64,000 bases of DNA from NCBI GenBank assembly GCA_963747695.1, contig CAVVFV010000010.1:325618-389617 (forward strand), given 5' to 3'. Shown one piece after another: positions 6,782 through 64,000 of the stretch. The position numbers and the translations under genes were made by a program. Under the pieces are notes generated by a model. The model did no database searches. It was not told the DNA's origin and saw only the letters and a list, made by a program, of their open reading frames with translations. The DNA comes from Candidatus Falkowbacteria bacterium (lineage in GTDB: Bacteria; Patescibacteriota; Patescibacteriia; Patescibacteriales; WJLG01). Each line of letters opens with the position of its first letter. Positions within the stretch are counted from its first letter, which is position 1.

Positions 6782-6895
6782 ATTACCTAAAATTATTGAA
6801 TTATCTGAGATTTATTATACCTTCCCAGCGTGGCCAGGTCAAAATAAAAACATCCTGCCTAGGTCGGATGTTTAATCTTCTTAGTGGGCAATATA

Positions 6896-6940
6896 GGACT
6901 CGCCAGTGGATGAACCCCCGGCGCCCGGTCGGACTTGCCC
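6896..6940 (-). repeat. tRNA-associated double-hairpin element, copy A (5'-truncated, degenerate)
   Basis: Minus-sense gtccgaccgggcgccgggggttcatccactggcgagtcc matches copies at 23224-23270 and 55761-55806. It is flanked by gggcaa (6886-6891) and ttgccc (6935-6940). Confidence 0.6.
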
Positions 6941-7208: not shown

Positions 7209-7715
7209 CTATCTTATATACAAATAGATTTTCGGTTGTTCGGGAAGGCTGTCGACTTGGGCCGGGGTCCAGCCCGGCATCGGCCAAGTGTAACAAATTA
7301 CTCTGGCGCCCGGCTTCAATTCCTTTTCCATCTTTACCCGCAATTTTTGCATGATGCGCGGCATCAGAAAAACAAAGATCGCGTCGGCTTCCCCCAAATT
7401 TATCCCCCAAAAATCGCGGAAATAAATTTTCGGCTTATCCTTGCCGCGGAAAAAAATAATCTTGAATTTAGCGATCAAATAGGGGAGCAAGGAAATTTCA
7501 AAGCCTTCGGATACGGCTCCGGCCGCCGCGGCGGCAAAAAGAGTCCGGCCGTCGCCCGCGCCAATGTCAAAAAATTTTTCTCCCGCTTTCAGCCTGGCCA
7601 GCTTGATCGCCCGCTCGACATCTTCCCGATACATCGGCAGCCAAGGAGCCGCCCGCCAAGCCGCGTAAACAAAGGTTAGCCCGAAAATAAAGACAATTAG
7701 ATAAATCCAAATCAT
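7209..7715 (-). CDS. Membrane-anchored class I SAM-dependent methyltransferase
   Basis: N-terminal TM helix followed by FFDIGAGDGRTLFAAA (motif I). Confidence 0.65.
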   Translation of the reverse strand: MIWIYLIVFIFGLTFVYAAWRAAPWLPMYREDVERAIKLARLKAGEKFFDIGAGDGRTLFAAAAAGAVSEGFEISLLPYLIAKFKIIFFRGKDKPKIYFRDFWGINLGEADAIFVFLMPRIMQKLRVKMEKELKPGARVICYTWPMPGWTPAQVDSLPEQPKIYLYIR

Positions 7716-9376: not shown

Positions 9377-11998
9377 ATGTATTTGGAGAAGCTAGATATC
9401 CAGGGTTTTAAATCTTTCGCCAGCAAAAACACGCTGGTTTTTCCGGCTGGCAACAAAGAAAAGAAGGGAATTACGGTGATCGTCGGGCCGAACGGTTCGG
9501 GCAAATCCAACGTCGCCGACGCGGTGCGCTGGGTTTTGGGCGAACAGAGTATGAAGACCTTGCGCGCCAAAACCTCCGAGGATGTCATCTTTTCCGGATC
9601 TTCTTCCAAGGGCCAGCTGGGCATGGCTGAGGTTTCTTTGTATTTGAATAACGAAGACGGCCAAGCGCCGATCGATTTTTCGCAATTGGTTATTACCCGC
9701 CGCATCTACCGCGACGGGGAAAGCGATTATTTATTGAATGAAGCCAAGGTCCGGCTGGCGGATATCCAGATCCTCTTAGCCAAATCCGGCGTCGGCCAAA
9801 AAACTTACAGCGTGATCGGCCAAGGAATGGTGGAGTCCTTTTTGGCCACGACCGCGAGCGAGCGCAAAGAATTTTTCGATGAAGCCACCGGGGTGCGCCA
9901 ATTCCAGATCAAGCGCGAACAATCTTTATCCAAACTGATCGCGAGCTACGAAAATTCCGGGCAAGCCAATATGCTTTTAGCCGAAATCGAACCGCGCTTG
10001 AAAAGTCTAACCCGCCAAGTGAATAAACTGCGCCAGCGCGATGAGATTGAAACCGAATTGAAAAATATCCGCACCGGTTATTTCAAATTCGTCTGGCATA
10101 ATTTGAATGATAAATTTTCCGAATATAATAATAAATATTTATCTTTGGAAGAGATTTTACGCGGCAAAACCGCAGAATTATCGCGGCTTAACGCCGAACT
10201 CGGCAAAATGGAAGAAAGCCGCGAGACTGAAGAATACGATAGATTGAGCGCGCAAGCCGCGGAAATCCAAAAGCAGCGCGAAGAAATTTTAAAAAAGATC
10301 GCGGCCACCGACGCTGAACTGACCCTGCAGTTGGAGGCGTCGGGCAATTTTGATCTTTCCTGGCTCGTTAGCAAAGAAAGCGAACTGAAACAAGAAGTCG
10401 ATCATGCCGAAAAGGTTCTCGCCGATTTGCAGAACGAGTTAGCGGCGAAGAATAATTTGGTCAAGAATTTCAGCGATGAAAAAAAGGTCTTGAATGATAA
10501 AATCGAGGAGATGAATAAATCCTTGCGTGAATTGTCCGGCTCCGGCAAAGGCATCGCCCGCGATGAAAAGAAAATCGCTTCGCTCTTAAGCGAAATAAAA
10601 ATTGAATTGGAAAAATTGGAGGAAGAAAACGATCTAAATAAACTTAAAGAATCATTGGGCAGATTAAAGCCGCTTATTTCCCAGGTCATCGCTTTGAGCT
10701 CGGCGGGCGTCGATAATGAGGCGTTTTATGCCAAGCAGCATGAAATCCAGGAAGGCCTTTTGCGCTTAGCCAAGGAGAAAGAAGAGCTGATCGGTCGCGC
10801 GCTTGATCCGGAAATGGCCGCCAAGTCGCTCGAGGAAAAAATCAATTTGCTGAATGAAAATCGGCGCCGCCAAAAAAATGAGCTGGAAACTACTTCAGCT
10901 AAAATCAAATCAAGCGGCGAGAATAAAGGCGACACGGACGTCAAAGACAAAAAAAACAAGCTGGAAGTTGCCCTCAAGGAGATCGATTCGCAGGTCGGAG
11001 CGATAAAAGAAAAACTTAATGCCTTCAATCGGGAACGGGAAGAAAAACGCTCCCGGCTTTTCCGCCTCCAGCGCGAAGGCCAGAATTTGCAGCAAGAGAT
11101 CAATCGGCTTTCCAACGAACTCAATGTCATCAAGATCGATTCGGCCAAATATGAAACCCGCTTGGAAGATCTAGAAACTGAGATCCGCAAAAATTTCGCC
11201 GATCTCAAAGACATCAAGGAAACCCGGACGCCGGAAAATATCAATACTTTAGAAGCGGAAATCAAGATCCGCCAGCTGGAAAACCAGTTAAGCCTGATCG
11301 GCGGCATCGACCCGGAAGTGGAAAAGGAATATTCTGAAACCAAAACCAAATTTGATTTCTTAAAGGAGCAGGTCACCGATCTGGAAACGGCTATCGGCAC
11401 ACTGGAGGGAGTCATCAAGGAATTGGATGGCAAGATCAAAGAAAGATTCGACAAGGAATTCAAAGAGATCTGCCATAAGTTTGAAGAATATTTTAAAATC
11501 TTGTTCAATGGCGGTTCGGCCAAGATCATCAAGCTGGAAGATGAGGAAGACGTGGCAAAGTCAGATGGCACGACTGAAGAAAAGAAAGATGAGCAAAATG
11601 AATTGCAGGAAAAAATCAAACGGCTTTCCAAATATAATGCGACCGGTTTGGCTGGGATTGAGATCCAAGCCTGCCCGCCCGGCAAAAAAATAAATACCAT
11701 CAATATGCTCTCCGGCGGCGAAAAAGCCTTGACCGCGATCGCCTTGATTTGCGCCATTATCAGCGCCAATCCCTCGCCGTTCGTCTTCTTGGACGAAGTC
11801 GATGCGGCGCTCGATGAATCCAATTCCGAACGCCTGGCCAAAATCCTTGAAGACTTATCTTCCAAAACTCAATTCATCGTCATCACCCACAACCGCGCGC
11901 CGATGCACCGCGCCAACGTCCTCTACGGCGTGACGATGCAGGAAAACGGCGTCTCCAAACTATTGAGCATCAAGTTGGAGGATTATATCAAAAAATAG
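9377..11998 (+). CDS. smc: Chromosome segregation protein SMC (short coiled-coil form)
   Basis: MYLEKLDIQGFKSFA, Walker A GPNGSGKSN, signature LSGGEKALTAIAL, Walker B FVFLDEVDAALD. I used the ATG at 9377, not the track start at 9335. Confidence 0.9.
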   Translation: MYLEKLDIQGFKSFASKNTLVFPAGNKEKKGITVIVGPNGSGKSNVADAVRWVLGEQSMKTLRAKTSEDVIFSGSSSKGQLGMAEVSLYLNNEDGQAPIDFSQLVITRRIYRDGESDYLLNEAKVRLADIQILLAKSGVGQKTYSVIGQGMVESFLATTASERKEFFDEATGVRQFQIKREQSLSKLIASYENSGQANMLLAEIEPRLKSLTRQVNKLRQRDEIETELKNIRTGYFKFVWHNLNDKFSEYNNKYLSLEEILRGKTAELSRLNAELGKMEESRETEEYDRLSAQAAEIQKQREEILKKIAATDAELTLQLEASGNFDLSWLVSKESELKQEVDHAEKVLADLQNELAAKNNLVKNFSDEKKVLNDKIEEMNKSLRELSGSGKGIARDEKKIASLLSEIKIELEKLEEENDLNKLKESLGRLKPLISQVIALSSAGVDNEAFYAKQHEIQEGLLRLAKEKEELIGRALDPEMAAKSLEEKINLLNENRRRQKNELETTSAKIKSSGENKGDTDVKDKKNKLEVALKEIDSQVGAIKEKLNAFNREREEKRSRLFRLQREGQNLQQEINRLSNELNVIKIDSAKYETRLEDLETEIRKNFADLKDIKETRTPENINTLEAEIKIRQLENQLSLIGGIDPEVEKEYSETKTKFDFLKEQVTDLETAIGTLEGVIKELDGKIKERFDKEFKEICHKFEEYFKILFNGGSAKIIKLEDEEDVAKSDGTTEEKKDEQNELQEKIKRLSKYNATGLAGIEIQACPPGKKINTINMLSGGEKALTAIALICAIISANPSPFVFLDEVDAALDESNSERLAKILEDLSSKTQFIVITHNRAPMHRANVLYGVTMQENGVSKLLSIKLEDYIKK

Positions 11999-12085
11999 CT
12001 TAAAGTTTAAAAGTTTACTTTTCATCGACATCACATAATGGTATAATCTAAATTCATATAAGTTGTATAAAACTAGCCAACAAAA

Positions 12086-12105
12086 AAATCCGGGAAACCG
12101 GATTT
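12086..12105 (+). terminator. Hairpin downstream of smc
   Basis: aaatccgg-gaaa-ccggattt with a GNRA-like loop. The U-run is short. Confidence 0.4.
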
Positions 12106-12111
12106 AATCTG

Positions 12112-12258
12112 TTTACTAACTGACGGTGGCAAACTACCAAACCAAGAAAATAGAAATTTAATAGTAAATTCGAATTACATATTAATCGCCGCTAGCGGCT
12201 AATGAAGCTTAAGAGCCACTATCTTCAAAGTAGATAATTGCCACCGTCAATTAGTAAA
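12112..12258. repeat. 147-bp element closed by 21-bp inverted repeats (MITE-like or structured RNA)
   Basis: tttactaactgacggtggcaa (12112-12132) pairs with ttgccaccgtcaattagtaaa (12238-12258) with one mismatch. An internal palindrome gccgctagcggc is present. Confidence 0.6.
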
Positions 12259-12294
12259 ATTAATAAAATCGAATGCAAAAAAATGCGTTCGATT

Positions 12295-12702
12295 TTATTT
12301 TCTTCTAACCTCAATTCTTTTTTTAAGATCAATTACAAAAATACTGCCCCTCGTCTCGTCTTGAATTAGTTCGGGCACATACTTACCCTTTATCCTTGAT
12401 AAAGATAATTCGGAATTTAATTTAAAAAAATTGTGAGCCGAAATCCACGCGGTCTTATTCTTTTCATTATGATTCAAGGGGAAAGTTCCTTCGCCAAGCT
12501 CGTCTCCGCCTAACTGAAATCCAATAATTTCTGCATCCTTATCATAAAGCATTAGACATTTTTTAAATCTTGAAATTTCGTTTGCTCTATAAAAGCCGGA
12601 GTAAAATGAAATTGCTCCGCTTCCATTAATTCCAATATAATTACTTCCTACTCGAGAACCAAAACTTCTTACTTCAATAAAATTAGGCTTGAAATCAATC
12701 AT
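12295..12702 (-). CDS. Hypothetical protein (AT-rich orphan)
   Basis: 135-aa ORF, visibly more AT-rich than its neighbours. It is followed by hairpin aaaatcgaatgc/gcgttcgatttt at 12265-12295. No motif recognised. Confidence 0.55.
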   Translation of the reverse strand: MIDFKPNFIEVRSFGSRVGSNYIGINGSGAISFYSGFYRANEISRFKKCLMLYDKDAEIIGFQLGGDELGEGTFPLNHNEKNKTAWISAHNFFKLNSELSLSRIKGKYVPELIQDETRGSIFVIDLKKRIEVRRK

Positions 12703-12936
12703 AAATTTATATAATTAGTTATCTGTATTAAGTATAGCACCAAATTCCATAGTTTGCAATGGCTAAAAAAATTACTAATATTTAACATTTATCACGATTT
12801 AACAATCGCAATTTTTCAAAAATCTGCTTAAACAATGAAACAAAATCAGAAGTAACTTCAGTAGCTATTCTGATAGCAACACTTCAAACAACACCAAAAA
12901 ATTCAGAAACATCACCTTTATACTCTTGCGCTTTTT

Positions 12937-13018
12937 TGGTTCCGGCAGAGTCTCGCGCCAGCGGACTCGGCCGCAATTTTCATCAGAGTCCCCGAGGTGC
13001 GAGACTCTGACGAGGCCA
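12937..13018 (+). repeat. E2 GC-rich nested-stem element, copy 1
   Basis: tggttccggcagagtctcgcgccagcggactc...gagtccccgaggtgcgagactctgacgaggcca. Outer stem agagtctcgc/gcgagactct, inner stem ggactc/gagtcc. Homologous to 48599-48684. Confidence 0.7.
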
Positions 13019-22660: not shown

Positions 22661-22795
22661 AATAAAAGTATAACAAAAAATTGCTTAAACAGCGATTTTC
22701 ATAAAAAAGAGAATAATTTCTAAACCCGTCTGCCGTTATCTCAAAAGCGACCTTTTTAATACAAAGACAGCTCCAATATTGGCGCTGTCTCATGT

Positions 22796-23047
22796 AGCGG
22801 AGTGGGCGGGATCGTTCCCTCGCGGCTCTCGCCTCGCTCCTGACCAGTTCGAGCCCCTGAACGAGCCAAGGGGTTGACTTACATGAGCTGCGGTCGCGCT
22901 CGCGTCGCTTCCGCTCCGCTCACTTGTCCAGAGGCAGCGCCGACCTGCCCCCGGCAGGTCGTCGGCCGCTCGCCTGCGTCTGCCGCCGCCGGAATTGCGG
23001 CGGCAGACGCGTCTCGCTCCTGCAGTTCGAGTCCCGCTTCCTCACAA
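22796..23047 (+). repeat. GC-rich T-loop-ended units U1 (partial) and U2 (full, about 22863-23047)
   Basis: Both end in CTCGCTCCTG(AC)CAGTTCGAG(C/T)CCC. U2 aligns block-by-block with the minus-strand units at 55201-55365 and 55401-55571. 22796-22811 repeats 15 of 16 nt of the tRNA-Asp 3' end region. Confidence 0.7.
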
Positions 23048-23166: not shown

Positions 23167-23223
23167 AAAAATTTTTTTAAATATAAATAAGTGTTTGATT
23201 TTATCCGCCTTGTTCTTATTATA

Positions 23224-23283
23224 GGCCTCGCCAGGGGATGAACCCCTGGCGCCCGGTCGGATGACCGGGCGAACTACCACTCC
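23224..23283 (-). repeat. Double-hairpin element copy B fused to an exact 13-nt copy of the tRNA-Asp 5' end
   Basis: Minus-sense GGAGTGGTAGTTC (23283-23271, identical to 23166-23154) followed by gcccggtcatccgaccgggcgccaggggttcatcccctggcgaggcc. Confidence 0.75.
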
Positions 23284-54583: not shown

Positions 54584-54594
54584 AAGATTTAACA

Positions 54595-54696
54595 CACCCC
54601 GTCGCCGCGGCGGCGCCACCTCCGCCTCGGCCCGCCTTGCTGAAGCTTTGGCGAGGCAGGCAAGCCTTGGGCGAGACGGGCCTCTCAAGAGGGGAA
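54595..54696 (-). repeat. E1-related repeat, copy 6 (long, degenerate)
   Basis: Begins caccccgtcgccgcgg and ends cctctcaagagggga. The central part is a longer imperfect palindrome (gcctcggcccgccttgc...gcaagccttgggcgag). Confidence 0.6.
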
Positions 54697-54764
54697 TCTA
54701 AACACCGAACTTTGACAATAAAATAATTTGTAATTTTTAATTCTTAATTTGTAATTGATTGAAA

Positions 54765-55142
54765 GGGGATGCCAGGCTTCGATGACAAGAATTATTGCTA
54801 ATACTCAAGGCGTGTCGGATTTCACGTAAAACGGTCCAAAATCACAATTGCGAACAAAATCGCTCGCGGAGCCGCCTTCACTTGGAAGGTTCCGGCTTTC
54901 GCGCCTGTTGCCGCTTAATACCGGCAGCCATTTCGCCTTCTGACTCCTCTGGGGAGGTGGGAGTGTCATTTTAGAGGATCAGGTTGCCAGTGTCGGCTCT
55001 TAGACTGGCAACCGAAACTAAATAGGGCTCGCCATTATTTTTTCGCCTTGCTTTTAGGTAATGGTCAAACTCAAGCTGGGCTAAACTTGTAGTAGTATTA
55101 TCAATAACTTGCCAGACGCGGGTTCAATTCCCGCCATCTCCA
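54765..55142 (+). ncRNA. ssrA: tmRNA (SsrA)
   Basis: 5' GGGGATG pairs with 3' CATCTCC. T arm GCGGG-TTCAATT-CCCGC. Tag reading frame 54850-54918 (GCG AAC ... GCC GCT TAA) gives ANKIARGAAFTWKVPAFAPVAA. Adjacent to smpB. Confidence 0.9.
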
Positions 55143-55143
55143 C

Positions 55144-55193
55144 AAGGTATTTTTTTGTATTTTTTTTGCTAAAAAAATACAAAAAAATACCTT
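55144..55193. terminator. 50-nt perfect palindrome, bidirectional terminator after ssrA
   Basis: aaggtatttttttgtatttttttt-gc-taaaaaaatacaaaaaaatacctt. Confidence 0.75.
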
Positions 55194-55200
55194 GCTGAAT

Positions 55201-55365
55201 GGTGCGGGAATTGAACTGGTCAGGAGCGAGGCAATGGCCGCGAGGGAACGAGCGGCCGGCAGCCGAGCGTCCGCCAAGCATTCGGGGAATGCTTGGCGCT
55301 GACCCTGGACGAGGGAACGAGCCGCTTTCCGGCGGCGAGTGACCGAGCAACGGTACCCAGACATG
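55201..55365 (-). repeat. GC-rich T-loop-ended unit U3
   Basis: Minus-sense catgtctggg...gtccagggtcagcgcc[hairpin]...ctcgctcctgaccagttcaattcccgcacc. Paralogous to U2 and U4. Confidence 0.7.
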
Positions 55366-55400
55366 TTTTTTTAAAAAGTTTTACCATTTTATTTGCAGAT

Positions 55401-55571
55401 TGCCGCGGCGGGAATTGAACTGGTAGCGAGCGAGATATGAGGTGAGGCGGAAGCCGAGTCGAATAATCGAGCGACGCCGGACGCGACCCAAGGGAGCGTT
55501 TGGCGGCAACTCTGGACGAAGGAGCGAGGCGGAATTCCGCCGCCGAGCGACTGAGACGGCAGTTCAGATGG
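55401..55571 (-). repeat. GC-rich T-loop-ended unit U4
   Basis: Minus-sense ccatctgaac...gtccagagttgccgcc...ctcgctcgctaccagttcaattcccgccgcggca. Confidence 0.7.
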
Positions 55572-55629: not shown

Positions 55630-55713
55630 GGTCCAGTGGCGGAACTGGTATACGCGCAGCACTTAAAATGCTGTGTCCGCGAGGGCATGTGGGTTCGAGT
55701 CCCACCTGGACCA
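55630..55713 (+). tRNA. tRNA-Leu (anticodon TAA)
   Basis: GGTCCAG/CTGGACC acceptor, CAGCA-CTTAAAA-TGCTG anticodon arm, variable arm TGTCCGCGAGGGCAT, GTGGG-TTCGAGT-CCCAC T arm. 84 nt. Confidence 0.9.
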
Positions 55714-55751
55714 CAGGTAATTTTTTGCGAAGTTTTTTAAACCTTTGCAAT

Positions 55752-55817
55752 AAGGGTTCGCCCGGTCATCCGACCGGGCGCCCGGGGTTCATCCCCGGGC
55801 GAGTCCCTCCCGGACCA
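55752..55817 (+). repeat. Diverged copy of the tRNA-Leu 3' end with double-hairpin element copy C inside the T-loop
   Basis: aagggttcg[cccggtcatccgaccggg cg cccggggttcatccccggg]cgagtccctcccggacca, compared with the genuine 3' end gtgggttcgagtcccacctggacca 40-100 nt upstream. Confidence 0.75.
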
Positions 55818-55905
55818 CATAAATAAATTAAAAATTAAAAATTAAGAATTAAAAATGACAGCTTGATTTTTTTTGAGATCGCTGATATTATTGTATTTGT
55901 AATTT

Positions 55906-57264
55906 TTAACTTTTCATTTTTAATTGAATTTTGCGGGTATCGTATACCGGTATTATGCCACCTTGCCATGGTGGAGAAACGGGTCCAATTCCCGTTACCC
56001 GCTCACTAATCATACAAGCCTCTTTTTTAGGAATTTTTTTTAACGCGAAGCGCAGCTCCACGTAAGGTTTAATGGGCACAAATTTAAGTTTTCCGGTTTT
56101 TAAAAACAAGTTCGAGCCGCAAATTTTACGCAACGAAGATTTTTTGGAGGATAAGTCGCCAGTTTTCACTGTTTCATCCAATAAAACTGCATCTTTTATC
56201 CAATTTTGGAGAGGTTCGAGCCAAGCGACAACCCCCTTGTTTAAGCTGGCCATTTTTTCCTCTAAATCCCTCTTCTGTAAGACAAGCTTTCTCTTTTCTG
56301 CCCGATAAACCTCGCGGTCGATATCTTGCTCCAAAAGGGCATCAAGAAGGACACGGAGCTTGTTGGAAATGGCCGCTATCTCCGCTTTGATCGCTTGGCT
56401 CTCCGTGCCTGACGATTGGAGTGCCTCTTTTTCATCCTTTTCCGCCATCTTCAATAATTCTGTGGCGCAATCGGCAGGCAAAATGAACTCTTTTAGGATA
56501 TCCGGCAATTGGCCGGTTAAATCATCTTCTTTGACGCAGGGTTGGGAACAGGTCCCTCTTTTTTTTGTACAACGGTAATAAGCGTAGCGATGAACATTAC
56601 CGTTCTTTTGATGCTTAATTTTAACTTCTCCGGTTATGGCGCAACCGCACTCATCGCACCGGATAAGCCCGCAAAAAACTTTTGGCTCACCCTTTGGATT
56701 TTTAGGCGGTTTGCCACGCTCATTTAATACTTTTTGAACTTTATCAAAAAGCTGTTTGGATATAATCGGCGTATGTTTGCCTTCGTGAAGCTCTCCGTCA
56801 TAGCGAAACAAGCCGAAATAGAAAGTGTTGGTTAAAATATACGTCACGCGGTCGCGCGATATGGTTTTGCCAGATCTGGTATGGATGCCGCGCTCGGCCA
56901 AAAATTTCGCTACGTCCTCAAGGCGGGTGTCGCCATTGGCGTAATACTCAAACGCTTCGCGAACGGCTTTCGCGATTTTTTTGTCGACGACAATCGTCTT
57001 GTATCTCCGGTCGTTGAAATAGCCGACGGGCGCGCGCGAAGGATATTCGCCGTTTTTAACTTTTTCATTAAGGCCGCGCCTGGTGTTTGTGCTTAGGTCG
57101 ATAATAAACTGGTTGGCCATGCCAAACTCGACGCTCATCAGCAGAATATTGTCCGTCGAGCGATAACTGCGGTCGTGGGTTTGGATGTGCTGGATTATCC
57201 CCCGCTGGAGAAACCAGCTAATTTGCCCGCCGTCGACGGGTATAATGGTCCAGGAATCCTGCAC
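55906..57264 (-). pseudogene. Large serine recombinase, 5'-truncated by the IS element
   Basis: Recombinase domain (PVGYFND...ILTNTFYFGLFRY), zinc ribbon (CGLIRCDECGCAI...YYRCTKK) and coiled-coil are present. The N-terminal catalytic-Ser region is missing, and the reading frame abuts the IS left end. Confidence 0.75.
55933..56003 (+). tRNA. tRNA-Gly (anticodon GCC)-like, non-canonical T-loop
   Basis: GCGGGTA/TACCCGC acceptor, CCACC-TTGCCAT-GGTGG anticodon arm, ACGGG-TCCAATT-CCCGT T arm (C where U55 is expected), weak 3-bp D stem. It lies antisense inside the 3' end of the recombinase ORF. Confidence 0.6.
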
Positions 57265-57314
57265 ACATTTTGACCCATTAAAAAGTTGGATTCGGGGTGG
57301 TATAATAACCCCAT

Positions 57315-57653
57315 ATGAGTAAACAAAACAAAGTATCCAAAGAAGAGAAAGCTAAGATCGTTCTAACCGTCCTGCGGGGCGAAAAGACTGTCAGCGAGAT
57401 TGCGGCGCAATACAGTGTTCATCCCAACCTGATAACCCGCTGGAAACAGACAGCCACCGAAAGCATGGCCGAGCTGTTTGAAGACAAGCGCAATAAGATT
57501 GAAAAAGACAAGTTTCAAGAGCAAGAACAACTGGTAGACAGGCTGTATAAATTGGTTGGCCAGCGAGACATTGAGCTCGACTGGCTCAAAAAAAAATTAT
57601 CAATCTTTGACGATGATCGACCGGCTAAAATTGGTCGACCGAGAAAATCCTGA
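57315..57653 (+). CDS. IS3-family transposase OrfA (HTH)
   Basis: KEEKAKIVLTVLRGEKTVSEIAAQYSVHPNLITRWKQ followed by a leucine-zipper-like region. Confidence 0.85.
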   Translation: MSKQNKVSKEEKAKIVLTVLRGEKTVSEIAAQYSVHPNLITRWKQTATESMAELFEDKRNKIEKDKFQEQEQLVDRLYKLVGQRDIELDWLKKKLSIFDDDRPAKIGRPRKS

Positions 57654-58521
57654 TATCACTCTGACCCGCCAGACTGAATTGCTGGACATCTCCCGCTCCC
57701 GCCTGTATTACCAGACCGAAGTCAGCGAGAGGGATCTGCTCATTATGAATCTGATTGATGAAATATATACGGAAAATCCAAGCTACGGCAAGAGGACGAT
57801 AGCGGCCATTATCAGGCGCGACCATAAAATTCCGGTTGGTAAAAAACATGTCCGGACGCTAATGATCAAGATGGGTATTACGGCGATATATCCGAAGAAA
57901 AAGAGGGATTTGAGCCAGCCGGACAAACAGCATAAAATTTATCCGTATCTGCTCCGCGGACTATCAATCACCAGGTCGAATCAGGTTTGGAGCACGGATA
58001 TCACCTACATCAGATTAGAACACGGCTTCTGCTATTTAACGGCTATCATCGATTGGCATTCGCGCTATGTCATTGCCTGGGAATTGTCTAACACATTAGA
58101 TATCGATTTTTGCTTGCGAGTTCAAGAGCGAGCCTATGCCTTGGCAATCCCTGAGATTTTCAACTCTGATCAGGGCAGCCATTTTACCAGTCCGAAATTC
58201 ACCGCCGCCAGTCTGGAAAAAGGCGTCAAAATCAGCATGGACGGCAAAGGCCGCTGTTTGGACAATATCTTCATTGAGCGATTGTGGCGGACAGTTAAAC
58301 AGCAGGATGTTTACATCAAGCACTACGAATCGGTGGCTGAATGCCGAGCCGGCTTAACGAAATTTTTTGACAGCTACAACAATTACCGTCCGCATCAGTC
58401 GCTCAACTACCTTACTCCCGCCGAAGCCTATTTCGGCCAAAACAAAAAAACTGCCTTTACAGAGCAGCTTAATATACCAAGCTTTAATTTAAATGCCGTC
58501 CTGACCAACCCAACTATTTAA
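57556..58521 (+). CDS. IS3-family transposase OrfB (DDE integrase core)
   Basis: WSTDITYI (D), NSDQGSHFTS (D), IERLWRTVKQQ (E). Presumably expressed as an OrfAB fusion across the A9 run at 57588-57596. Confidence 0.85.
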   Translation: MASETLSSTGSKKNYQSLTMIDRLKLVDRENPDITLTRQTELLDISRSRLYYQTEVSERDLLIMNLIDEIYTENPSYGKRTIAAIIRRDHKIPVGKKHVRTLMIKMGITAIYPKKKRDLSQPDKQHKIYPYLLRGLSITRSNQVWSTDITYIRLEHGFCYLTAIIDWHSRYVIAWELSNTLDIDFCLRVQERAYALAIPEIFNSDQGSHFTSPKFTAASLEKGVKISMDGKGRCLDNIFIERLWRTVKQQDVYIKHYESVAECRAGLTKFFDSYNNYRPHQSLNYLTPAEAYFGQNKKTAFTEQLNIPSFNLNAVLTNPTI

Positions 58522-58542
58522 TCTCAAAATATTGTGTTGACA

Positions 58543-58794
58543 AACTGGACCACTATAGTTACCCATGTAGATGGATCGGCAAGGGTACAAACTGTAAATA
58601 AGATGCAGAATCCCAGGTTGTACAGCCTCATTAGTGAATTCGAAAAAATCACTGGAATTCCAATTATTCTTAATACCTCTTTTAATGTAAATGGCGAGCC
58701 CATTGTTGAATCTCCGGAAGATGCTATAAAATGTTTTATGGGAACGAATATTGATGTGCTGGTGATTGGAAATTATATTATAAACAAGAAATAA
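58543..58794 (+). pseudogene. C-terminal remnant of a NodU/CmcH-type carbamoyltransferase
   Basis: THVDGSARVQTV...NTSFNVNGEPIVESPEDAIKCF matches only the last ~85 residues of that family. It starts at the IS right end. Confidence 0.7.
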
Positions 58795-58840
58795 TTTTGC
58801 AGACAAAATTTTTTTAAAAGATTTGTAAAAATAAAACAAT

Positions 58841-60334
58841 ATGAAGCAGTCTAAAAGGAGTGCAATTAGTCAAAAATTGATAAGGTTTACCGAAGGGGCA
58901 TTTTTTGAGTATGTTTTGCCAAGAATAGAAGAAAAATACCCAGCCACTATTGGAAAATTTTTTGTTATCTTAACTTCATCTGTCGCTTATGGTATTGCGG
59001 ATAAGTATTCCGATTTAGATATTTTTATTATTTTTCCAGAGCATAAGGATTATTTAAAATATCATAGAAAAATGCAGAGCCTGATTGACTCAATAGAATA
59101 TCCGGCCAATTATTATGATATTTGTGATAAGGGGATTAGATTTGAATTTGAAAGTTTTCTTAAGTCAGACATACTCAATATTGTAAAAAATCAGTCAGAC
59201 AATAATTGGCTGAACCAAACAGAGTGGTTGCTATGCTGGTTCATCAACTCAGTGGCTATTTATGATCCTATAGAAGTCTTCGCAAACACTAAAAAGAAAT
59301 TACTATTTTTTCCTAAAAAAATAGTTGAAATTAAAGCAAATAATAGTTTAATTTCTTTATTAAAATATAGGCAAATCCTGTCATTAACTAAAGATAAATA
59401 CGTATTCGATGTTTATTACTTTAAGTCATTGAAGAAAATCATGGATTTAATATTTTGGAGTGAGGAAATGTTTGTCCCTCATCCAAAGTGGTCTTTCTAT
59501 TTGTCTAGATATGTAAGCAGTCTTGGTAGGCAATTTTATAAAAGTGCGTCCGTGGTGCTGGATAATAATGAAAAAAACAAGGTTTTGTTTATTGAAAAAT
59601 GGATAAATATCATAGTTAGTAGATGTGGTAAAAAGCTTTGTATGGATGAAAGATTGATAAAATATATTGCTAACGAATATAGGTATGATGTAAGGAAAAA
59701 ATATCCAACCGATAGGAATTTTTATTTTAAAAATTATTTAGAGCCAATAAAAAAAATAGATCTAGTATTTGCGTATCTTGATAAAGAAAGACTGGATAAA
59801 CAATATTATTTGATTGAAGAAATCGGATTGAATTATAAAGGGAGGATGAATTATGATAAATTATTGCGTAGGCAAGATAAATATCTATTGCATCATAATG
59901 ACGACTATCTCTTGGTCGGTGATGATATATTTAAAAAAGTGATTTTGTATTTAGTGTTTATAATATGGAGAAAAATAAGAGTTGCTACGAAAGCGCCCCT
60001 GCGAAAGAATTTTTTTAATCAGCAGTGGTATAATTTACAGGTTCTTGAGCATTTCATTGAATTTATAGCTAGGTTAGAAAAAAGAGCTTTTGTGCATGAA
60101 AATAAGCAGCTGGATTTTTTGAGGTCAGACAGAAAATTTAAAAAGGTTGCAGATTTGCTGCTAAGAACTCTTGAATTATCTCAGGACGAGAAAATTAAAA
60201 TTTATTGGGAGTGCTATAATAATCTGACGAAATATATTTTGGAAAATAACATACTAACTGAATTTCAGGTTAAAAATCCATTAGTTATTCAGTTTGATAT
60301 TGAATATTGGAAATATGAGAATTTGAGACTTTAA
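58841..60334 (+). CDS. Nucleotidyltransferase-fold (Pol-beta superfamily) protein, function unknown
   Basis: ILTSSVAYGIADKYSDLDIFIIF resembles the GS-x(n)-D-x-D minimal NTase motif. 497 aa, very AT-rich. Confidence 0.55.
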   Translation: MKQSKRSAISQKLIRFTEGAFFEYVLPRIEEKYPATIGKFFVILTSSVAYGIADKYSDLDIFIIFPEHKDYLKYHRKMQSLIDSIEYPANYYDICDKGIRFEFESFLKSDILNIVKNQSDNNWLNQTEWLLCWFINSVAIYDPIEVFANTKKKLLFFPKKIVEIKANNSLISLLKYRQILSLTKDKYVFDVYYFKSLKKIMDLIFWSEEMFVPHPKWSFYLSRYVSSLGRQFYKSASVVLDNNEKNKVLFIEKWINIIVSRCGKKLCMDERLIKYIANEYRYDVRKKYPTDRNFYFKNYLEPIKKIDLVFAYLDKERLDKQYYLIEEIGLNYKGRMNYDKLLRRQDKYLLHHNDDYLLVGDDIFKKVILYLVFIIWRKIRVATKAPLRKNFFNQQWYNLQVLEHFIEFIARLEKRAFVHENKQLDFLRSDRKFKKVADLLLRTLELSQDEKIKIYWECYNNLTKYILENNILTEFQVKNPLVIQFDIEYWKYENLRL

Positions 60335-60362
60335 TTTGGGGCAAACGATCAATTATTGAAAA

Positions 60363-60392
60363 AGGCCATTACGAGAGATCTCGTAATGGCCT
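60363..60392. terminator. Bidirectional terminator
   Basis: aggccattacgaga-gatc-tcgtaatggcct between the convergent NTase-like gene and serS. Confidence 0.75.
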
Positions 60393-60397
60393 TTCAG

Positions 60398-61612
60398 CTA
60401 TTTCTTTGTTATTACCTCCTTGCCATTTATGAATGGCCTGAGTGCTTCAGGAATGATTACATTCCCATCAGCGGTTTGGTTGTTTTCGAGGATGGCCAGT
60501 AGTACGCGGTCAGTTATCATGGTTGCGGAAATGGTGTGTGGGAAGAAGTTTTTCTCGCCCTTGACCCTGATTTTCAGCCTCCTTGTTTGAAAATCGAGAA
60601 GATTGGTATTGGAGTGTGTTTCCCGATACCCACCATAGCCAGCGAACCAGGCCTCTATGTCGTACTTTTTGTATCCCGGAGCGCCCATATCTCCCACACA
60701 AACATTTACCACGCGATAAGGAACTTCCAGGAGTTGCATGATACGCTCCTCATTCGCTAGGCAAATTTCATGAAACTTGGGAGAGTCATCGGGGTGGCAG
60801 AGTATAATCTGCTCCGTTTTGTGAAACTGGTGTACTCTGAATGCGCCCTTGGTTGCCTTGCCATAGGAACCAGCTTCGGTTCGAAAGCACGGCGTAAGCG
60901 CACAATACTTCAGTGGCAGGATCGCCTTGTCAAGAATCTCGTCCATATGGAAAGATACAAGTGTTTGCTCGGATGTTCCGATCAGGCTCGTATCTGTGTC
61001 AGAGATTCCGTAAAATTGATCCTTTGAGAACGGCAGGTAGCCCGTACCAAACAGGGTTTCCTTTTTTGCAACGATTGGGGTTAACATCAGGGTAAAACCT
61101 TGATTCAGCAGCATTTGCTGGGCAAGCTGAAAGATTGCCATAGCCAGGACAGCTCCGTCGCCGACCCAGTAATAAAAACCTGCGCCTGCCACTTTGCTCC
61201 CTCTGGCCAAATCAAGTATGCCGAGATTGACTCCGATAGTTTCGTGAGTTTGAGGTTTAAAGTCGAAATTTGGAACCTGTCCCCACTTTTTGATTTCGAC
61301 GTTATCAGCGTCGCTTTCTCCATCCGGGACATCCTCAGCAAGAATATTGGGCAGTTGCCTCCACATCTCGATTCGTTCCGCCTCGAGTTTTCCCGTGATC
61401 TCCTTCAGAATCCTGATTTCTCCTTTCAGGGAGTTATCAGCATTCTTGCCCAAAACTTTCCTTTGATGCTGTAATTCCTCCAGTTTTACCTTGTTCTTCT
61501 GAAGTTCGGTGTCTATTTCGAGTAGCTTATAGACATCAATCTCCATCTTGCGCCGCCTACAGATCTCGGCAATTAATGCCGGATCTCTTCTTAACAGTCC
61601 AAAGTCTATCAT
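60398..61612 (-). CDS. serS: Seryl-tRNA synthetase
   Basis: N-terminal coiled-coil arm, class II motif 2 FRTEAGSYGKATKGAFRVHQFHKTE, motif 3 region TISATMITDRVLLAILENNQ. 404 aa. Confidence 0.9.
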   Translation of the reverse strand: MIDFGLLRRDPALIAEICRRRKMEIDVYKLLEIDTELQKNKVKLEELQHQRKVLGKNADNSLKGEIRILKEITGKLEAERIEMWRQLPNILAEDVPDGESDADNVEIKKWGQVPNFDFKPQTHETIGVNLGILDLARGSKVAGAGFYYWVGDGAVLAMAIFQLAQQMLLNQGFTLMLTPIVAKKETLFGTGYLPFSKDQFYGISDTDTSLIGTSEQTLVSFHMDEILDKAILPLKYCALTPCFRTEAGSYGKATKGAFRVHQFHKTEQIILCHPDDSPKFHEICLANEERIMQLLEVPYRVVNVCVGDMGAPGYKKYDIEAWFAGYGGYRETHSNTNLLDFQTRRLKIRVKGEKNFFPHTISATMITDRVLLAILENNQTADGNVIIPEALRPFINGKEVITKK

Positions 61613-61799
61613 GGTACACCTCCTTAGGGTTTTAGTTGTAAAGGTTCAGGCCTCACTGACTTTGTATTATACTCCCAAAGACCAAATTTGTCAAGCACAG
61701 GCACGGCACGCTCAGTGCGCGTAGTGTTTGAGTCAAAATGCTTGATTTTATTATACATTTGTGATAACTTTATAAAATAATACAATTGGTTAACATATT

Positions 61800-62942
61800 A
61801 TGGCAAAAGACACAATAAAAAAGGGAAAGCTTAATAATCTGATTGATATTATGCAGAAAAAGGGAGGTAATGAGAGGGAAAGAGAGGATGAGGTAGCTAC
61901 TTTCCTGAAAAACGTTCCGAGAGTCCCTCATGATGAGATGATTCAAGATAAGATGGATTTTCCAACAAAGATTGTTTTCGATGTGAACTCGGCATGCAAT
62001 CTGCAATGTAAAATGTGCTACGTGAAAGGGAGAAATAATACCCAAGTTCCATATGGTGATTTTACTCGCATTTTAAGGGAAATAAAAAACAATAACTCCC
62101 GGGCTATACTTAGTTATAGTTCGCTTGAGCCATTCATGAGAAAGGATTTTTTGAAAATAACAAAAAAGACCCATGAGTTAGGAATTCCATTTTCCATTTT
62201 TACAAATGGAACATTGATTGATAAAAAAATAGCAAAGCTATTGGTGGAATATAATCCAATTTCAATCACGTTTTCTTTGCATGGGCTAAAAGACACACAC
62301 GAGATGATTAATGGGGTTCAAGGAAGTTATGATAAGGTTATTGATGCGATAAAGAATATAAATTATTACAAAAAAATACTTAAGAAAAAATTGCCATTTG
62401 TTAGGGTTAATTGTGTTATTTCATCTCTTAATTATCGAGAATTGCCAGAGTTCGTAAATATTGGCAAAAAGCTAAAATTAAATATGCGCTTCTCTCATTT
62501 AATTTGGGAAGATAAGAAGACACACGATGAAATTTTAAATTTCATAAAGAAAAATCTAAAAACTGACAGTAAAGATATAAGAATTGATTTTAGCAGCCAA
62601 CTCAGCAAAGAAGTTGATGTTAAGGATTTAATAAAAGTTATTAAAACAATAAAGAAGGACAAGGATATACAGTTTCTGCCAAGCCTCAGTGATAAGGATT
62701 TGATTAAGTGGTACACATCGCCAATATTTTTTAAGGAAAAAAAGTGTTTTTATCCATTTGAATCCATAAATATACGGTCTAATGGAGAGGTTCATCCTTG
62801 TGCGTTTATCGATTTTTCTTATGGGAATATCTTTGATAAGAATATAAAAGAAATTTGGAAATCAGACAGGGCTTTATTTTTCAAAAATTTATTGAAAAAG
62901 AACGGTGTTTTGCCACCTTGCAATAAGTGTTGTAAGTTGTAG
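61800..62942 (+). CDS. Radical SAM enzyme with SPASM/twitch-like C-terminal Cys cluster
   Basis: CNLQCKMCY (CxxxCxxC) and C-terminal CFYPFESINIRSNGEVHPC...PPCNKCC. Confidence 0.8.
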   Translation: MAKDTIKKGKLNNLIDIMQKKGGNEREREDEVATFLKNVPRVPHDEMIQDKMDFPTKIVFDVNSACNLQCKMCYVKGRNNTQVPYGDFTRILREIKNNNSRAILSYSSLEPFMRKDFLKITKKTHELGIPFSIFTNGTLIDKKIAKLLVEYNPISITFSLHGLKDTHEMINGVQGSYDKVIDAIKNINYYKKILKKKLPFVRVNCVISSLNYRELPEFVNIGKKLKLNMRFSHLIWEDKKTHDEILNFIKKNLKTDSKDIRIDFSSQLSKEVDVKDLIKVIKTIKKDKDIQFLPSLSDKDLIKWYTSPIFFKEKKCFYPFESINIRSNGEVHPCAFIDFSYGNIFDKNIKEIWKSDRALFFKNLLKKNGVLPPCNKCCKL

Positions 62943-62979
62943 GTGCATTTTATGGAAAAATAATTTTTTAATTCTAAAT

Positions 62980-64000
62980 ATGCAATATAAAGTTTCAAGA
63001 TTCGTAAAGAGCTACGAATTAGGAGGTTATAAATGTCTATATCACACTCTTTTGCAAGAGGTTTTATTCGTGAAAAATAATATTTACGAGAAGGATTTTA
63101 TTGACAAATTGACAAAACAAAATCCCAAACTACTTAGGTTAATGAAGAAACTTAAGTTTGTAATTTCTGATGATGAAGACAATGAGGTACTAAAAAATGT
63201 AGTATTGGAAAAAAAGAAATATGATAGCAACTATTCTCTATTGAGAATTTTAATGACTGACCTCTGCAATCTTAACTGCAAATATTGTAAGGTAGAAAAT
63301 AACATAATAGATAGACACAGCACCACAGTAAGCACAAATGATGTAACTGAAACTCTTAAATTATTTCAAAAAGTTTCACCTAAAAGGAAAAAATTAGTTT
63401 CTATTACGGGTGGTGAACCATTATTATTTCCGGATAAGGTTAAGGAAATAATAGAACTGTGCAAGACTCATCTGGATAATTATTGGATTATATTATTCAC
63501 CAATGCCATATTGGTTAACGCTGACATGGCAAAATATCTAAAAAAGGAAAATGTATCGATTGTCATATCGTTGGATGGCAGCGAAAAAGTTCATAATAAG
63601 TTACGCGTTTTTCATAATGGAGAGGGTAGTTACAGTAAGGTGATGGCGGGATATGAATTGTTGAGAAAGAATAAATGCCGGATTGGGTTTTCTTGCACCG
63701 CAGGAAAACACAATATCGATAATTTAGTTGAAGAAATGATTTTTATAATGAAGCATTTTAAGCCGGATAGTCTTGGTATAAATCCGCTTAAGTATCCTTC
63801 GCATAAGACAACCATTTTTTCTCATTTAACCTCGCCAGTCAAATATGCGCAACAGTTGTTTGAATTATATAAAGAAGCTACAAAAAAGGGTGTTTTTGTG
63901 GAGCAAATATATAGGAAGATTGCGCCTTTTGTAGAAAAAAGATTTAAATATTACGATTGTGGAGCATGTGGAAAAAATATTAATCTGGATGCTAGGGGGA
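62980..64000 (+). CDS. Radical SAM/SPASM maturase-like enzyme with ~95-aa N-terminal extension (3' end beyond the window)
   Basis: Absent from the ORF track because no stop occurs before the edge. My translation is MQYKVSRFVKSYELGGYKCLYHTLLQ...LRILMTDLCNLNCKYCKV...ITGGEPLL...YYDCGACGKNINLDARG. Confidence 0.75.
   Translation, partial: MQYKVSRFVKSYELGGYKCLYHTLLQEVLFVKNNIYEKDFIDKLTKQNPKLLRLMKKLKFVISDDEDNEVLKNVVLEKKKYDSNYSLLRILMTDLCNLNCKYCKVENNIIDRHSTTVSTNDVTETLKLFQKVSPKRKKLVSITGGEPLLFPDKVKEIIELCKTHLDNYWIILFTNAILVNADMAKYLKKENVSIVISLDGSEKVHNKLRVFHNGEGSYSKVMAGYELLRKNKCRIGFSCTAGKHNIDNLVEEMIFIMKHFKPDSLGINPLKYPSHKTTIFSHLTSPVKYAQQLFELYKEATKKGVFVEQIYRKIAPFVEKRFKYYDCGACGKNINLDARG

Follow-up and report, generated by a model that had tools for sequence, protein, structure and literature searches.

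A probable IS3 composite carrying foreign chromosome, one of three layers of mobile DNA at a conserved tmRNA-tRNA array in a Patescibacteria genome

The window analysed here is a stretch of 64,000 nt from Candidatus Falkowbacteria bacterium (assembly GCA_963747695.1, contig CAVVFV010000010.1, forward positions 325,618-389,617), in which an array of tmRNA, tRNA-Leu and tRNA-Gly genes is followed by a remnant of a large serine recombinase (LSR) gene, an insertion sequence (IS) of the IS3 family and an AT-rich block of genes. Comparison with related loci favours a reading in which three layers of mobile DNA have come to lie at a conserved array, with an IS3 composite transposon that carries 10.1 kb of foreign chromosome probably seated in the recombinase gene. 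A first-pass annotation made from the letters of the window had described the region as an integration hotspot with an accessory island. The recombinase remnant, the IS3 element and the carbamoyltransferase remnant that it listed are all present by Pfam and NCBIfam. An SmpB-based scan places the window in Patescibacteria, with the locus L003 as top relative (SmpB identity 86%). Exact look-ups of the window's SmpB and of its recombinase remnant returned no recorded entry. Genes for tRNA and tmRNA were identified with ARAGORN and Rfam, protein domains with Pfam and NCBIfam, and defence genes with PADLOC. The features on which the main argument rests are as follows.

55906-57240 (open reading frame, ORF, 55906-57264), minus strand: LSR gene remnant, residues 85-528 of 528 (Pfam, homolog comparison)
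57241-58557, plus strand: IS3-family element of 1317 bp (Pfam; identical to the stand-alone Logan unitig L088)
57315-57653, plus strand: IS3 orfA (HTH_Tnp_1)
57556-58521, plus strand: IS3 orfB (HTH_21, rve, rve_3)
58534-58794, plus strand: C-terminal fragment of a carbamoyltransferase (Carbam_trans_C, profile positions 93-170 of 170)
58558-64000 within the window, plus strand: AT-rich block, the putative cargo of the composite, 10,131 bp in all and reaching to about 68,688
58841-60334, plus strand: NTP_transf_2/DUF4037 protein of the nucleotidyltransferase (NTase) fold (Pfam)
60398-61612, minus strand: serS-404, seryl-tRNA synthetase (TIGR00414, 386.9 bits against a cut-off of 301.65)
61800-62942, plus strand: radical S-adenosylmethionine (rSAM)/SPASM enzyme (Pfam)
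62980 onward, plus strand: second rSAM enzyme (Pfam)

The genes of the block have a GC content at third codon positions (GC3) of 0.27-0.36, against 0.554 +/- 0.059 for the genes left of the junction (n=25, minimum 0.40), a shift in composition far beyond chance. The AT-richness reported by the first-pass annotation is thus borne out, as is its list of an NTase-fold protein, an opposite-strand serS and two rSAM enzymes, with the SPASM domain in the first of the two. Two contigs of assembly GCA_964538685.1 (L092 and L093), reached by cluster look-ups, are 98.0% identical to window positions 58557-61697, and upstream of the shared segment L092 carries ftsW, murG, murC, murB, hpf, secA, two small ORFs and an intact gene for a carbamoyltransferase of 554 aa, at GC3 values of 0.27-0.34. 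A second donor-type context found in the same way (L094) aligns at 93.5% identity over 10.1 kb with the gene order kept and both end genes intact, and continues into genes for a methyltransferase, an HD protein and a NIF3 protein, all low in GC. This collinearity with low-GC core flanks indicates that the block derives from the ordinary chromosome of a different low-GC Patescibacteria lineage, and its AT-richness is the composition of the donor genome. The SmpB of the GCA_964538685.1 bin is 56% identical to that of the window, and its contig (L033) has 36% GC. The comparison with related genomes that the first-pass annotation had proposed finds the block in none of the relatives with the same RNA array. 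These include L089, whose core genes are 79-85% identical in nucleotides to those of the window and whose tRNA-Gly and recombinase together reach 91.7%. The block is accordingly foreign to the host lineage.

The right boundary of the block comes from a sister assembly, the Logan contig L001 (run ERR11748453), which is identical to window positions 58528-64000 (5473 bp) and extends 4.7 kb further, through the rest of the second rSAM gene, a second seryl-tRNA synthetase gene (serS-425), aroE and an AP_endonuc_2/GFO_IDH fusion to a 5' fragment of a gene for a metallo-beta-lactamase (MBL)-fold hydrolase of the Lactamase_B family. One cut of the block falls within the carbamoyltransferase gene, the other some 224 nt after the start of the MBL gene. 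L001 opens with the terminal 30 nt of the IS3 right end and closes with the reverse complement of these 30 nt, so that in the sister assembly the 10,131-bp segment is bracketed by two inverted IS3 copies whose right ends point inward, and both ends of the block attach to an IS3 right end.

The element itself belongs to the IS3 family by its orfA/orfB organisation and frameshift run, the two frames overlapping by 98 nt with a slippery A9 run at 57588. Its terminal inverted repeats, TATAATGGTCCAG on the left and CTGGACCACTATA on the right, match at 13 of the first 14 nt and at 19 of the first 30. No target-site duplication surrounds the window copy (flanks ...CGACGGG / GTTACCC...), and the genes on both sides of it are cut, which argues that this copy is not a simple insertion. 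An arm of a composite, or a product of recombination between two IS copies, would be expected to lack such a duplication.

To the left of IS3, the recombinase ORF retains the Recombinase (PF07508, 1.7e-17) and Zn_ribbon_recom (PF13408, 3.1e-08) domains, and no Resolvase domain (PF00239) was found in it with Pfam. Alignment with an intact homolog of 528 aa (P0146) covers residues 85-528 at 93% identity. Residues 1-84 are missing, the first eight residues of the present ORF are encoded by the IS3 end, and the last 33 or so codons are the antisense of tRNA-Gly. Because the window copy starts at residue 85, the catalytic Ser of the YARKSTD motif is gone, and the gene is best described as an inactive remnant of an LSR family member. 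In L089, an intact recombinase gene of 528 aa lies at the same tRNA-Gly and is followed by a helix-turn-helix (HTH) gene, a 369-aa ORF and a 153-aa ORF. This intact element is about 3.3 kb long, and beyond it lie host genes for a giant fn3 protein, an argB-like protein, a cupin and PGM. Homology between L089 and the window ends at 57240, the last base before IS3.

Taken together, these observations would fit a history of four steps. A recombinase element first integrated at the 3' end of tRNA-Gly, as the comparison with L089 shows. Since the end genes are truncated and the IS ends inverted, two IS3 copies would have come to flank a chromosomal segment in the donor lineage. The resulting composite would then have entered the host lineage and either transposed into the recombinase gene or recombined with a resident IS3, in which event the recombinase gene would have lost codons 1-84 at its 5' end, and with them the catalytic Ser, and the rest of the element may have been lost too. 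Deletion or replacement is favoured here because the cargo proteins of the L089 type are not on the window's contig. The recombinase is now catalytically dead, and the remnant is thereby fixed in place. The cargo would on this account be an arbitrary fragment of chromosome, not a dedicated accessory module, and it would already have held an acquired second serS.

The alternative that competes most directly is an assembly chimera, in which the genomes of two Patescibacteria from one sample, with 45% GC to the left of the join and about 33-36% to its right, were linked through a common IS3 and the block is simply the chromosome of the second organism, with IS3 inserted in its carbamoyltransferase and MBL genes. 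This is judged unlikely. In its favour, the composition breaks exactly at IS3 and stays low for at least 10 kb, and the block matches another lineage's chromosome, where it has core-gene flanks, at 98% identity. The absent target-site duplication and the truncation of both flanking genes would also fit a mis-join. IS3 is also a separate branching unitig with several contexts in the Logan sample, and a mis-join there is technically possible. The block and the host-side tig gene occur in different Logan runs (ERR11748453 and ERR11594403, respectively), as two organisms would. If the chimera were real, the public record would hold a chimeric contig that should be flagged. Evidence from the rest of the contig points the other way. 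A host-type IF-3 (at least 90% identical to that of L003) is recorded on the same 453,905-bp contig outside the window, and infC lies 54-4596 bp downstream of tRNA-Gly in 10 relatives. An assembly path through the block exits a second IS3 at its left end and cannot rejoin the host unless the structure is real, so that a chimeric path leaving the host at IS3 could not have returned to host sequence; for this reason the junction is read as real. In addition, the records for the window's contig contain no donor-type secA, hpf or murB, nor the donor-type 84-aa protein or the full-length MBL protein. The host PGM ortholog was also considered as a marker of return to host sequence and is not on the contig; infC served instead.

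Several further points weigh against the composite transposon. Evidence for the right-hand IS3 comes solely from the Logan contig L001, which stems from another run and agrees fully with the window along their shared 5.5 kb. The N-terminal fragment of the recombinase, a target-site duplication around the whole composite and the junction beyond the second IS3 were not seen. For the proteins that L089 encodes in its 369-aa and 153-aa ORFs, no counterpart of at least 90% identity is recorded on the window's contig, and deletion or recombination between IS copies may have been involved instead of a simple insertion.

The model put forward in the first-pass annotation, in which the block is the cargo of an LSR-integrated island at tRNA-Gly that was later split by IS3, is improbable. 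The block does lie on the cargo side of the recombinase gene, the recombinase family does integrate at tRNA 3' ends, and host relatives are without the block. However, the complete elements of the family measure 2.5, 3.6 and 6.7 kb and carry defence genes, the orthologous element in L089 has other cargo in its roughly 3.3 kb, and the block is bracketed by IS3 ends and collinear with the core chromosome of another lineage, both end genes being cut. The tRNA-proximal end has neither an inverted nor a direct repeat in the 12.7 kb of the window and L001 that were checked for repeats of the tRNA-Gly end. With up to 3 mismatches allowed, the tRNA-Gly 3' end ATTCCCGTTACCCGCTC is matched in the window only by the tRNA itself and nowhere in L001, so the direct repeat that would mark the far boundary of a tRNA-targeting island does not occur in either, and an inverted copy of 55995-56110 is likewise absent from both. 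The accessory island thus stands as foreign DNA missing from same-array relatives and probably falls as recombinase cargo, its mechanism and boundaries having been wrongly drawn. Least probable is a native low-GC region of the host, for instance a cluster for surface glycans or for biosynthesis whose function favours a high AT content. Many bacteria have glycan clusters of low GC, and the genes of the block are arranged like operons, -4 to 46 nt apart, but the block is missing from L089 and all other same-array relatives, its GC3 lies 3-4 standard deviations under that of host genes and equals that of the donor mur and secA genes, and its end genes are truncated at IS3 ends.

Within the putative cargo, serS-404 is a GC-rich outlier, with a GC3 of 0.52-0.54 in three independent contexts (0.53 in the window). 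Beyond its own clade no homolog exceeds 61% identity, and those with a named source belong to Armatimonadota, Bryobacterales, Deltaproteobacteria and Firmicutes, all outside the Candidate Phyla Radiation (CPR). This pattern indicates a xenolog that was already present in the donor lineage. The notion that it is the host's native serS captured by an island was rejected on the same identities and affiliations. The description of serS as a core gene embedded in an island is accordingly replaced by that of a compositional outlier within a natively AT-rich donor segment. The second seryl-tRNA synthetase gene of that segment, serS-425 (L001 5910-7187, 425 aa), has a GC3 of 0.32 and is compositionally native. 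The donor lineage therefore holds two full-length seryl-tRNA synthetases 4.3 kb apart, of which serS-404 has a shortened N-terminal arm. No evidence for a dedicated function of the cargo was found, and a defence island was considered and set aside, as PADLOC returned only a generic rSAM-viperin similarity and the NCBIfam rSAM matches of both enzymes fall far below their cut-offs.

The recombinase remnant represents a large family. Homologs number 1922 proteins at E <= 1e-10, the intact ones being 500-565 aa long with a Resolvase domain. In every context fetched, six independent loci out of six, the 3' end of the recombinase gene overlaps a tRNA on the opposite strand:

Window: recombinase 3' end over tRNA-Gly(gcc)
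L083: recombinase 3' end over tRNA-Gly(tcc)
L084/L085: recombinase 3' end over tRNA-Arg(gcg)
L086: recombinase 3' end over tRNA-Gly(gcc)
L087: recombinase 3' end over tRNA-Gly(ccc)
L089-L091: recombinase 3' end over tRNA-Gly(gcc)

The proteins bear the same imprint, as tails such as ...ERVTGIEPV..., ...GFEPT... and ...DSNPRP... are translated antisense T-arms, and C-terminal peptides of this kind, e.g., G[IFV]EP, occur in 73 of 109 full-length homologs when scored by a simple motif in the alignment. These comparisons point to a CPR-wide family whose genes abut tRNA 3' ends and run antisense across the tRNA. The pairing of a serine recombinase with a tRNA, which the first-pass annotation had singled out as less expected, is therefore real and not exceptional, being shared across the family. 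About one fifth of the full-length homologs (among them P0011, P0020, P0026, P0027 and P0029) share a C-terminal ...LYxxxRTYFxxN and have no antisense-tRNA tail; they may represent a second target class or an unintegrated form. No tyrosine integrase was found by Pfam beside the window tRNA, where the sole recombinase belongs to the serine class.

Perfect (100%) terminal inverted repeats bound three of the four elements with both ends visible:

L083 5101-5163 / 7549-7611: terminal inverted repeat arms of 63 bp
L084 3893-3957 / 7421-7485: terminal inverted repeat arms of 65 bp
L087 859-980 / 7400-7521: terminal inverted repeat arms of 122 bp

The arm next to the tRNA, which starts 3-5 nt within the tRNA 3' end, contains the C-terminal codons of the recombinase gene. 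The elements so bounded are 2.5, 3.6 and 6.7 kb long, with an OLD/AbiL-like ATPase as cargo of the 3.6-kb element and a Ppl-like protein plus a Tsp45I restriction-modification pair in the 6.7-kb element. A long terminal inverted repeat was not found in the intact element of L089, so long repeats are not universal in the family. No direct repeats of the target were found, and the family appears to insert site-specifically at tRNA 3' ends without a long target duplication. No relatives of the recombinase were found in viral contigs, and a prophage nature of the element is therefore without evidence. A full-text search of the literature returned no description of tRNA-targeting serine recombinases in CPR.

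The array at which these elements lie begins with the tmRNA gene and comprises the following features:

54765-55143, plus strand: tmRNA (ssrA), the first gene of the array (ARAGORN; Rfam RF00023, 145.5 bits)
55116-55222: imperfect long palindrome (inverted repeat I4), in which a perfect AT-rich hairpin of 24 bp separates the T-arm and 3' end of the tmRNA from an inverted copy of the T-arm (GCGGGAATTGAAC)
55630-55714, plus strand: tRNA-Leu(UAA) (ARAGORN and Rfam)
55749-55820, plus strand: remnant of a tRNA-Leu T-arm and acceptor 3' end, made up of GGGTTCG, a 42-nt GC-rich double hairpin at the T-loop position and GAGTCCCTCCCGGACCACA
55933-56004, plus strand: tRNA-Gly(GCC) (ARAGORN and Rfam, 51.9 bits against a gathering score of 29)

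The first-pass annotation had placed all four of the tmRNA, tRNA-Leu(TAA), the tRNA-Leu 3' duplicate and a tRNA-Gly-like gene correctly, and the last of these is a bona fide tRNA-Gly(gcc). The order smpB, ssrA, tRNA-Leu(UAA), tRNA-Gly(GCC) recurs in 21 of the 80 SmpB loci fetched for the comparison, which argues that the array is ancestral in this Patescibacteria clade and not a by-product of integration. What varies is the sequence between and after the genes. Among array-bearing loci the tmRNA-tRNA-Leu spacer is bimodal, at 5-63 bp or 430-587 bp, and three close relatives (the window, L003 and L089) have three different occupants in it, those of the window being two GC-rich modules. In L003 the spacer holds a 124-aa ORF (10979-11353), shared only by L015, which looks like a four-helix-bundle or 23S intervening sequence (IVS)-like protein when the sequence is judged by eye; in L089 it holds a mini-ORF for an 80-aa GIY-YIG protein (11764-12006). 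Nowhere in the window are the genes that ancestrally follow the array, namely infC, rplT and one for a substrate-binding protein. Given the variable spacer contents and the variable distance from tRNA-Gly to infC, the array spacers and the 3' flank are insertion hotspots, and the label "hotspot" in the first-pass annotation is a fair one.

The tRNA-Leu remnant at 55749-55820 is probably the displaced ancestral 3' end of tRNA-Leu, since its acceptor strand CCGGACC is the allele of L003. An AT-rich motif of 33 nt (ATTTGTAATTTTTAA..TTAATTGA) stands immediately 5' of the tmRNA (54726-54758) and of tRNA-Gly (55895-55927) and once in inverted orientation (55825-55856), and looks like a shared promoter or UP-type element of the RNA genes. 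The spacer between smpB and ssrA contains a GC-rich insert of about 100 nt (54590-54700) that has no second copy within the window; the same spacer is AT-rich in L003. The host part of the window includes another 1-kb stretch of low GC (0.33) at 12001-13000.

The two GC-rich modules of the tmRNA-tRNA-Leu spacer are copies of a structured element of about 160 nt that recurs at the 3' ends of tRNA and tmRNA genes. Copies in the window and in L003 are the following:

55195-55355, plus strand: structured element, copy 1, in the tmRNA-tRNA-Leu spacer (covariance model R1, 167.6 bits)
55399-55563, plus strand: structured element, copy 2, a diverged tandem (R1, 137.6 bits)
22887-23046, minus strand: structured element after tRNA-Asp
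22732-22868, minus strand: structured element, partial
L003 11710-11870: structured element

A further 84 copies lie in L095-L174, and 96 copies in total were collected with the covariance model and a pattern scan of JGI metagenomes. In relatives, the element is also found after tRNA-Gly or tmRNA. The fold is supported by covariation among 76 distinct sequences, with 90.5% of cells paired against 69.1% in shuffles and compensatory changes in 27 of 31 pairs; slid controls gave 30-38%. Folding of the tRNA-sense strand, as opposed to its complement, is indicated by a U.G pair found in 36 sequences. Downstream placement is frequent, as 55 of the 96 copies lie 35-112 nt downstream of a tRNA or tmRNA (ten species) on the same strand; seven others are tandem second copies and ten lie at contig edges. 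Each element is matched to its neighbour. The head contains an exact inverted copy (at least 9 nt, median 12, maximum 18) of the T-loop/T-stem of the neighbouring tRNA in 51 of 54 tRNA-adjacent copies, and in 39 of the 54 the tRNA 3' end is directly repeated (at least 10 nt, median 17) with its T-loop start at a fixed offset; shuffled controls gave 0 of 54 for both. The direct repeat of L125 reaches a length of about 57 nt and takes in the terminator.

A duplicate of the tRNA-Glu 3' end persists in many copies that lack an intact tRNA, and pairs of elements flank membrane glycosyltransferase cassettes (L097 941-1100 and 2703-2863; L172 1971-2128 and 4702-4861), each element of these pairs having a conserved AT-rich stretch of roughly 100 nt before it and the tRNA-Glu 3'-end duplicate after it, which suggests a cassette-like arrangement. 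A smaller unit consists of two 7-bp GC hairpins (CCCGGTC..GACCGGG and CCNGGGG..CCCCNGG) in the T-loop position of partial tRNA copies, and is found at these positions:

55749-55820: smaller hairpin unit in the tRNA-Leu 3' remnant
23215-23275 and 6890-6940, minus strand: smaller hairpin unit
L005 11096-11170: smaller hairpin unit

Besides the tRNA-Leu remnant, its contexts are a tRNA-Asp 5' duplicate and a site downstream of tRNA-Val, and the window has it beside both tRNA-Asp and tRNA-Val. The tRNA-Leu 3' duplicate noted in the first-pass annotation is explained by this two-hairpin unit in the T-loop of a tRNA fragment.

No Rfam family matches 55195-55570 at E <= 1, apart from sub-threshold miRNA-like matches that overlap the first 30 nt or so; these matches, at 55116-55222, arise from the hairpin of the palindrome. 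Beside the other copies no family reaches its gathering score. No copy was found in viral contigs, no recombinase recurs next to the copies, and a full-text literature search returned no description of the element. A tentative proposal, and one held with less than even confidence, is that the modules are mobile elements of Patescibacteria, non-coding and structured, that insert in the T-loops of tRNA and tmRNA genes and form a class not described before. On this view each copy is made up of an inverted copy of the T-arm of its own target, a covarying module of several helices on the tRNA-sense strand and a direct repeat of the tRNA 3' end of at least 17 nt. The target-matched complementary head of 11-18 nt would fit a nucleic-acid-guided choice of target with an enzyme acting in trans. 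A trans-mobilised miniature integrative element is the alternative. The structured element is the part of the locus most likely to be new, and its target-matched head is the property most in need of explanation.

If the junction between host and block is real, the locus records a transfer, caught in the act, of 10 kb of ordinary chromosome with two serS genes from one Patescibacteria lineage to another with which it shares just 56% SmpB identity, before any amelioration of the cargo, and it bears on gene exchange among reduced genomes. The main structure combines known kinds of element, namely an IS3 composite transposon and a serine-recombinase integrative element; what is unusual is that core chromosome would have passed from one CPR lineage to another, and that a recombinase family that targets tRNAs has terminal repeats both long and perfect. 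As in composites of the Tn10 and Tn5 type, one IS occurs twice in inverted orientation around a passenger, and here the same (right) end faces the cargo on both sides. The differences are that the IS is of the IS3 family with its second copy only in the sister assembly, and that the passenger is a 10-kb slice of core chromosome with two serS genes, aroE and truncated ends instead of a resistance or catabolic module.

Large serine recombinases are established tools of genome engineering, and SCCmec inserts at the 3' end of a conserved gene. The family described here resembles known LSR elements (SCCmec with Ccr, the integrases of phiC31, Bxb1 and A118, and TnpX of Tn4451) in the Resolvase, Recombinase and zinc-ribbon domains of intact homologs, in the position of the gene at the edge of the element and in inverted-repeat ends without a long direct repeat of the target. 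It differs in that the target is the 3' end of tRNAs (Gly, Arg and others) with the ORF antisense across the whole tRNA, and that perfect terminal inverted repeats of 63, 65 and 122 bp bound three of the four elements with both ends visible, none having been found in L089; the window copy is dead. As a large natural LSR family with attB at tRNA 3' ends and palindromes of 63-122 bp at the element ends, it is a variant that stands out and can be tested.

Williams reportedly described in 2002 the T-loop and 3'-end sublocations of islands in which tyrosine integrases target tRNA and tmRNA genes. The present locus is like such islands in that the site is directly 3' of tRNA or tmRNA and in that the direct repeat of the structured elements runs from the T-loop to the tRNA end. 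It is unlike them in having no tyrosine integrase and an AT-rich block without a tRNA repeat, the repeat-flanked elements being only about 0.2-0.25 kb and non-coding. For the structured element, integron attC sites, the bridge RNA of IS110, miniature inverted-repeat transposable elements (MITEs) and cis-mobilizable elements (CIMEs) serve as analogies only. The element shares with them that it is non-coding and multi-copy, with structure conserved above sequence, and that it is tied to a specific target with 11-18 nt complementary to it; it differs in that no associated recombinase and no Rfam match were found. To our knowledge, none of these systems pairs a target-derived inverted copy with a direct repeat of at least 17 nt. 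The structured element is thus a candidate for a new kind of mobile or regulatory nucleic acid, of which enough copies are now at hand to design experiments.

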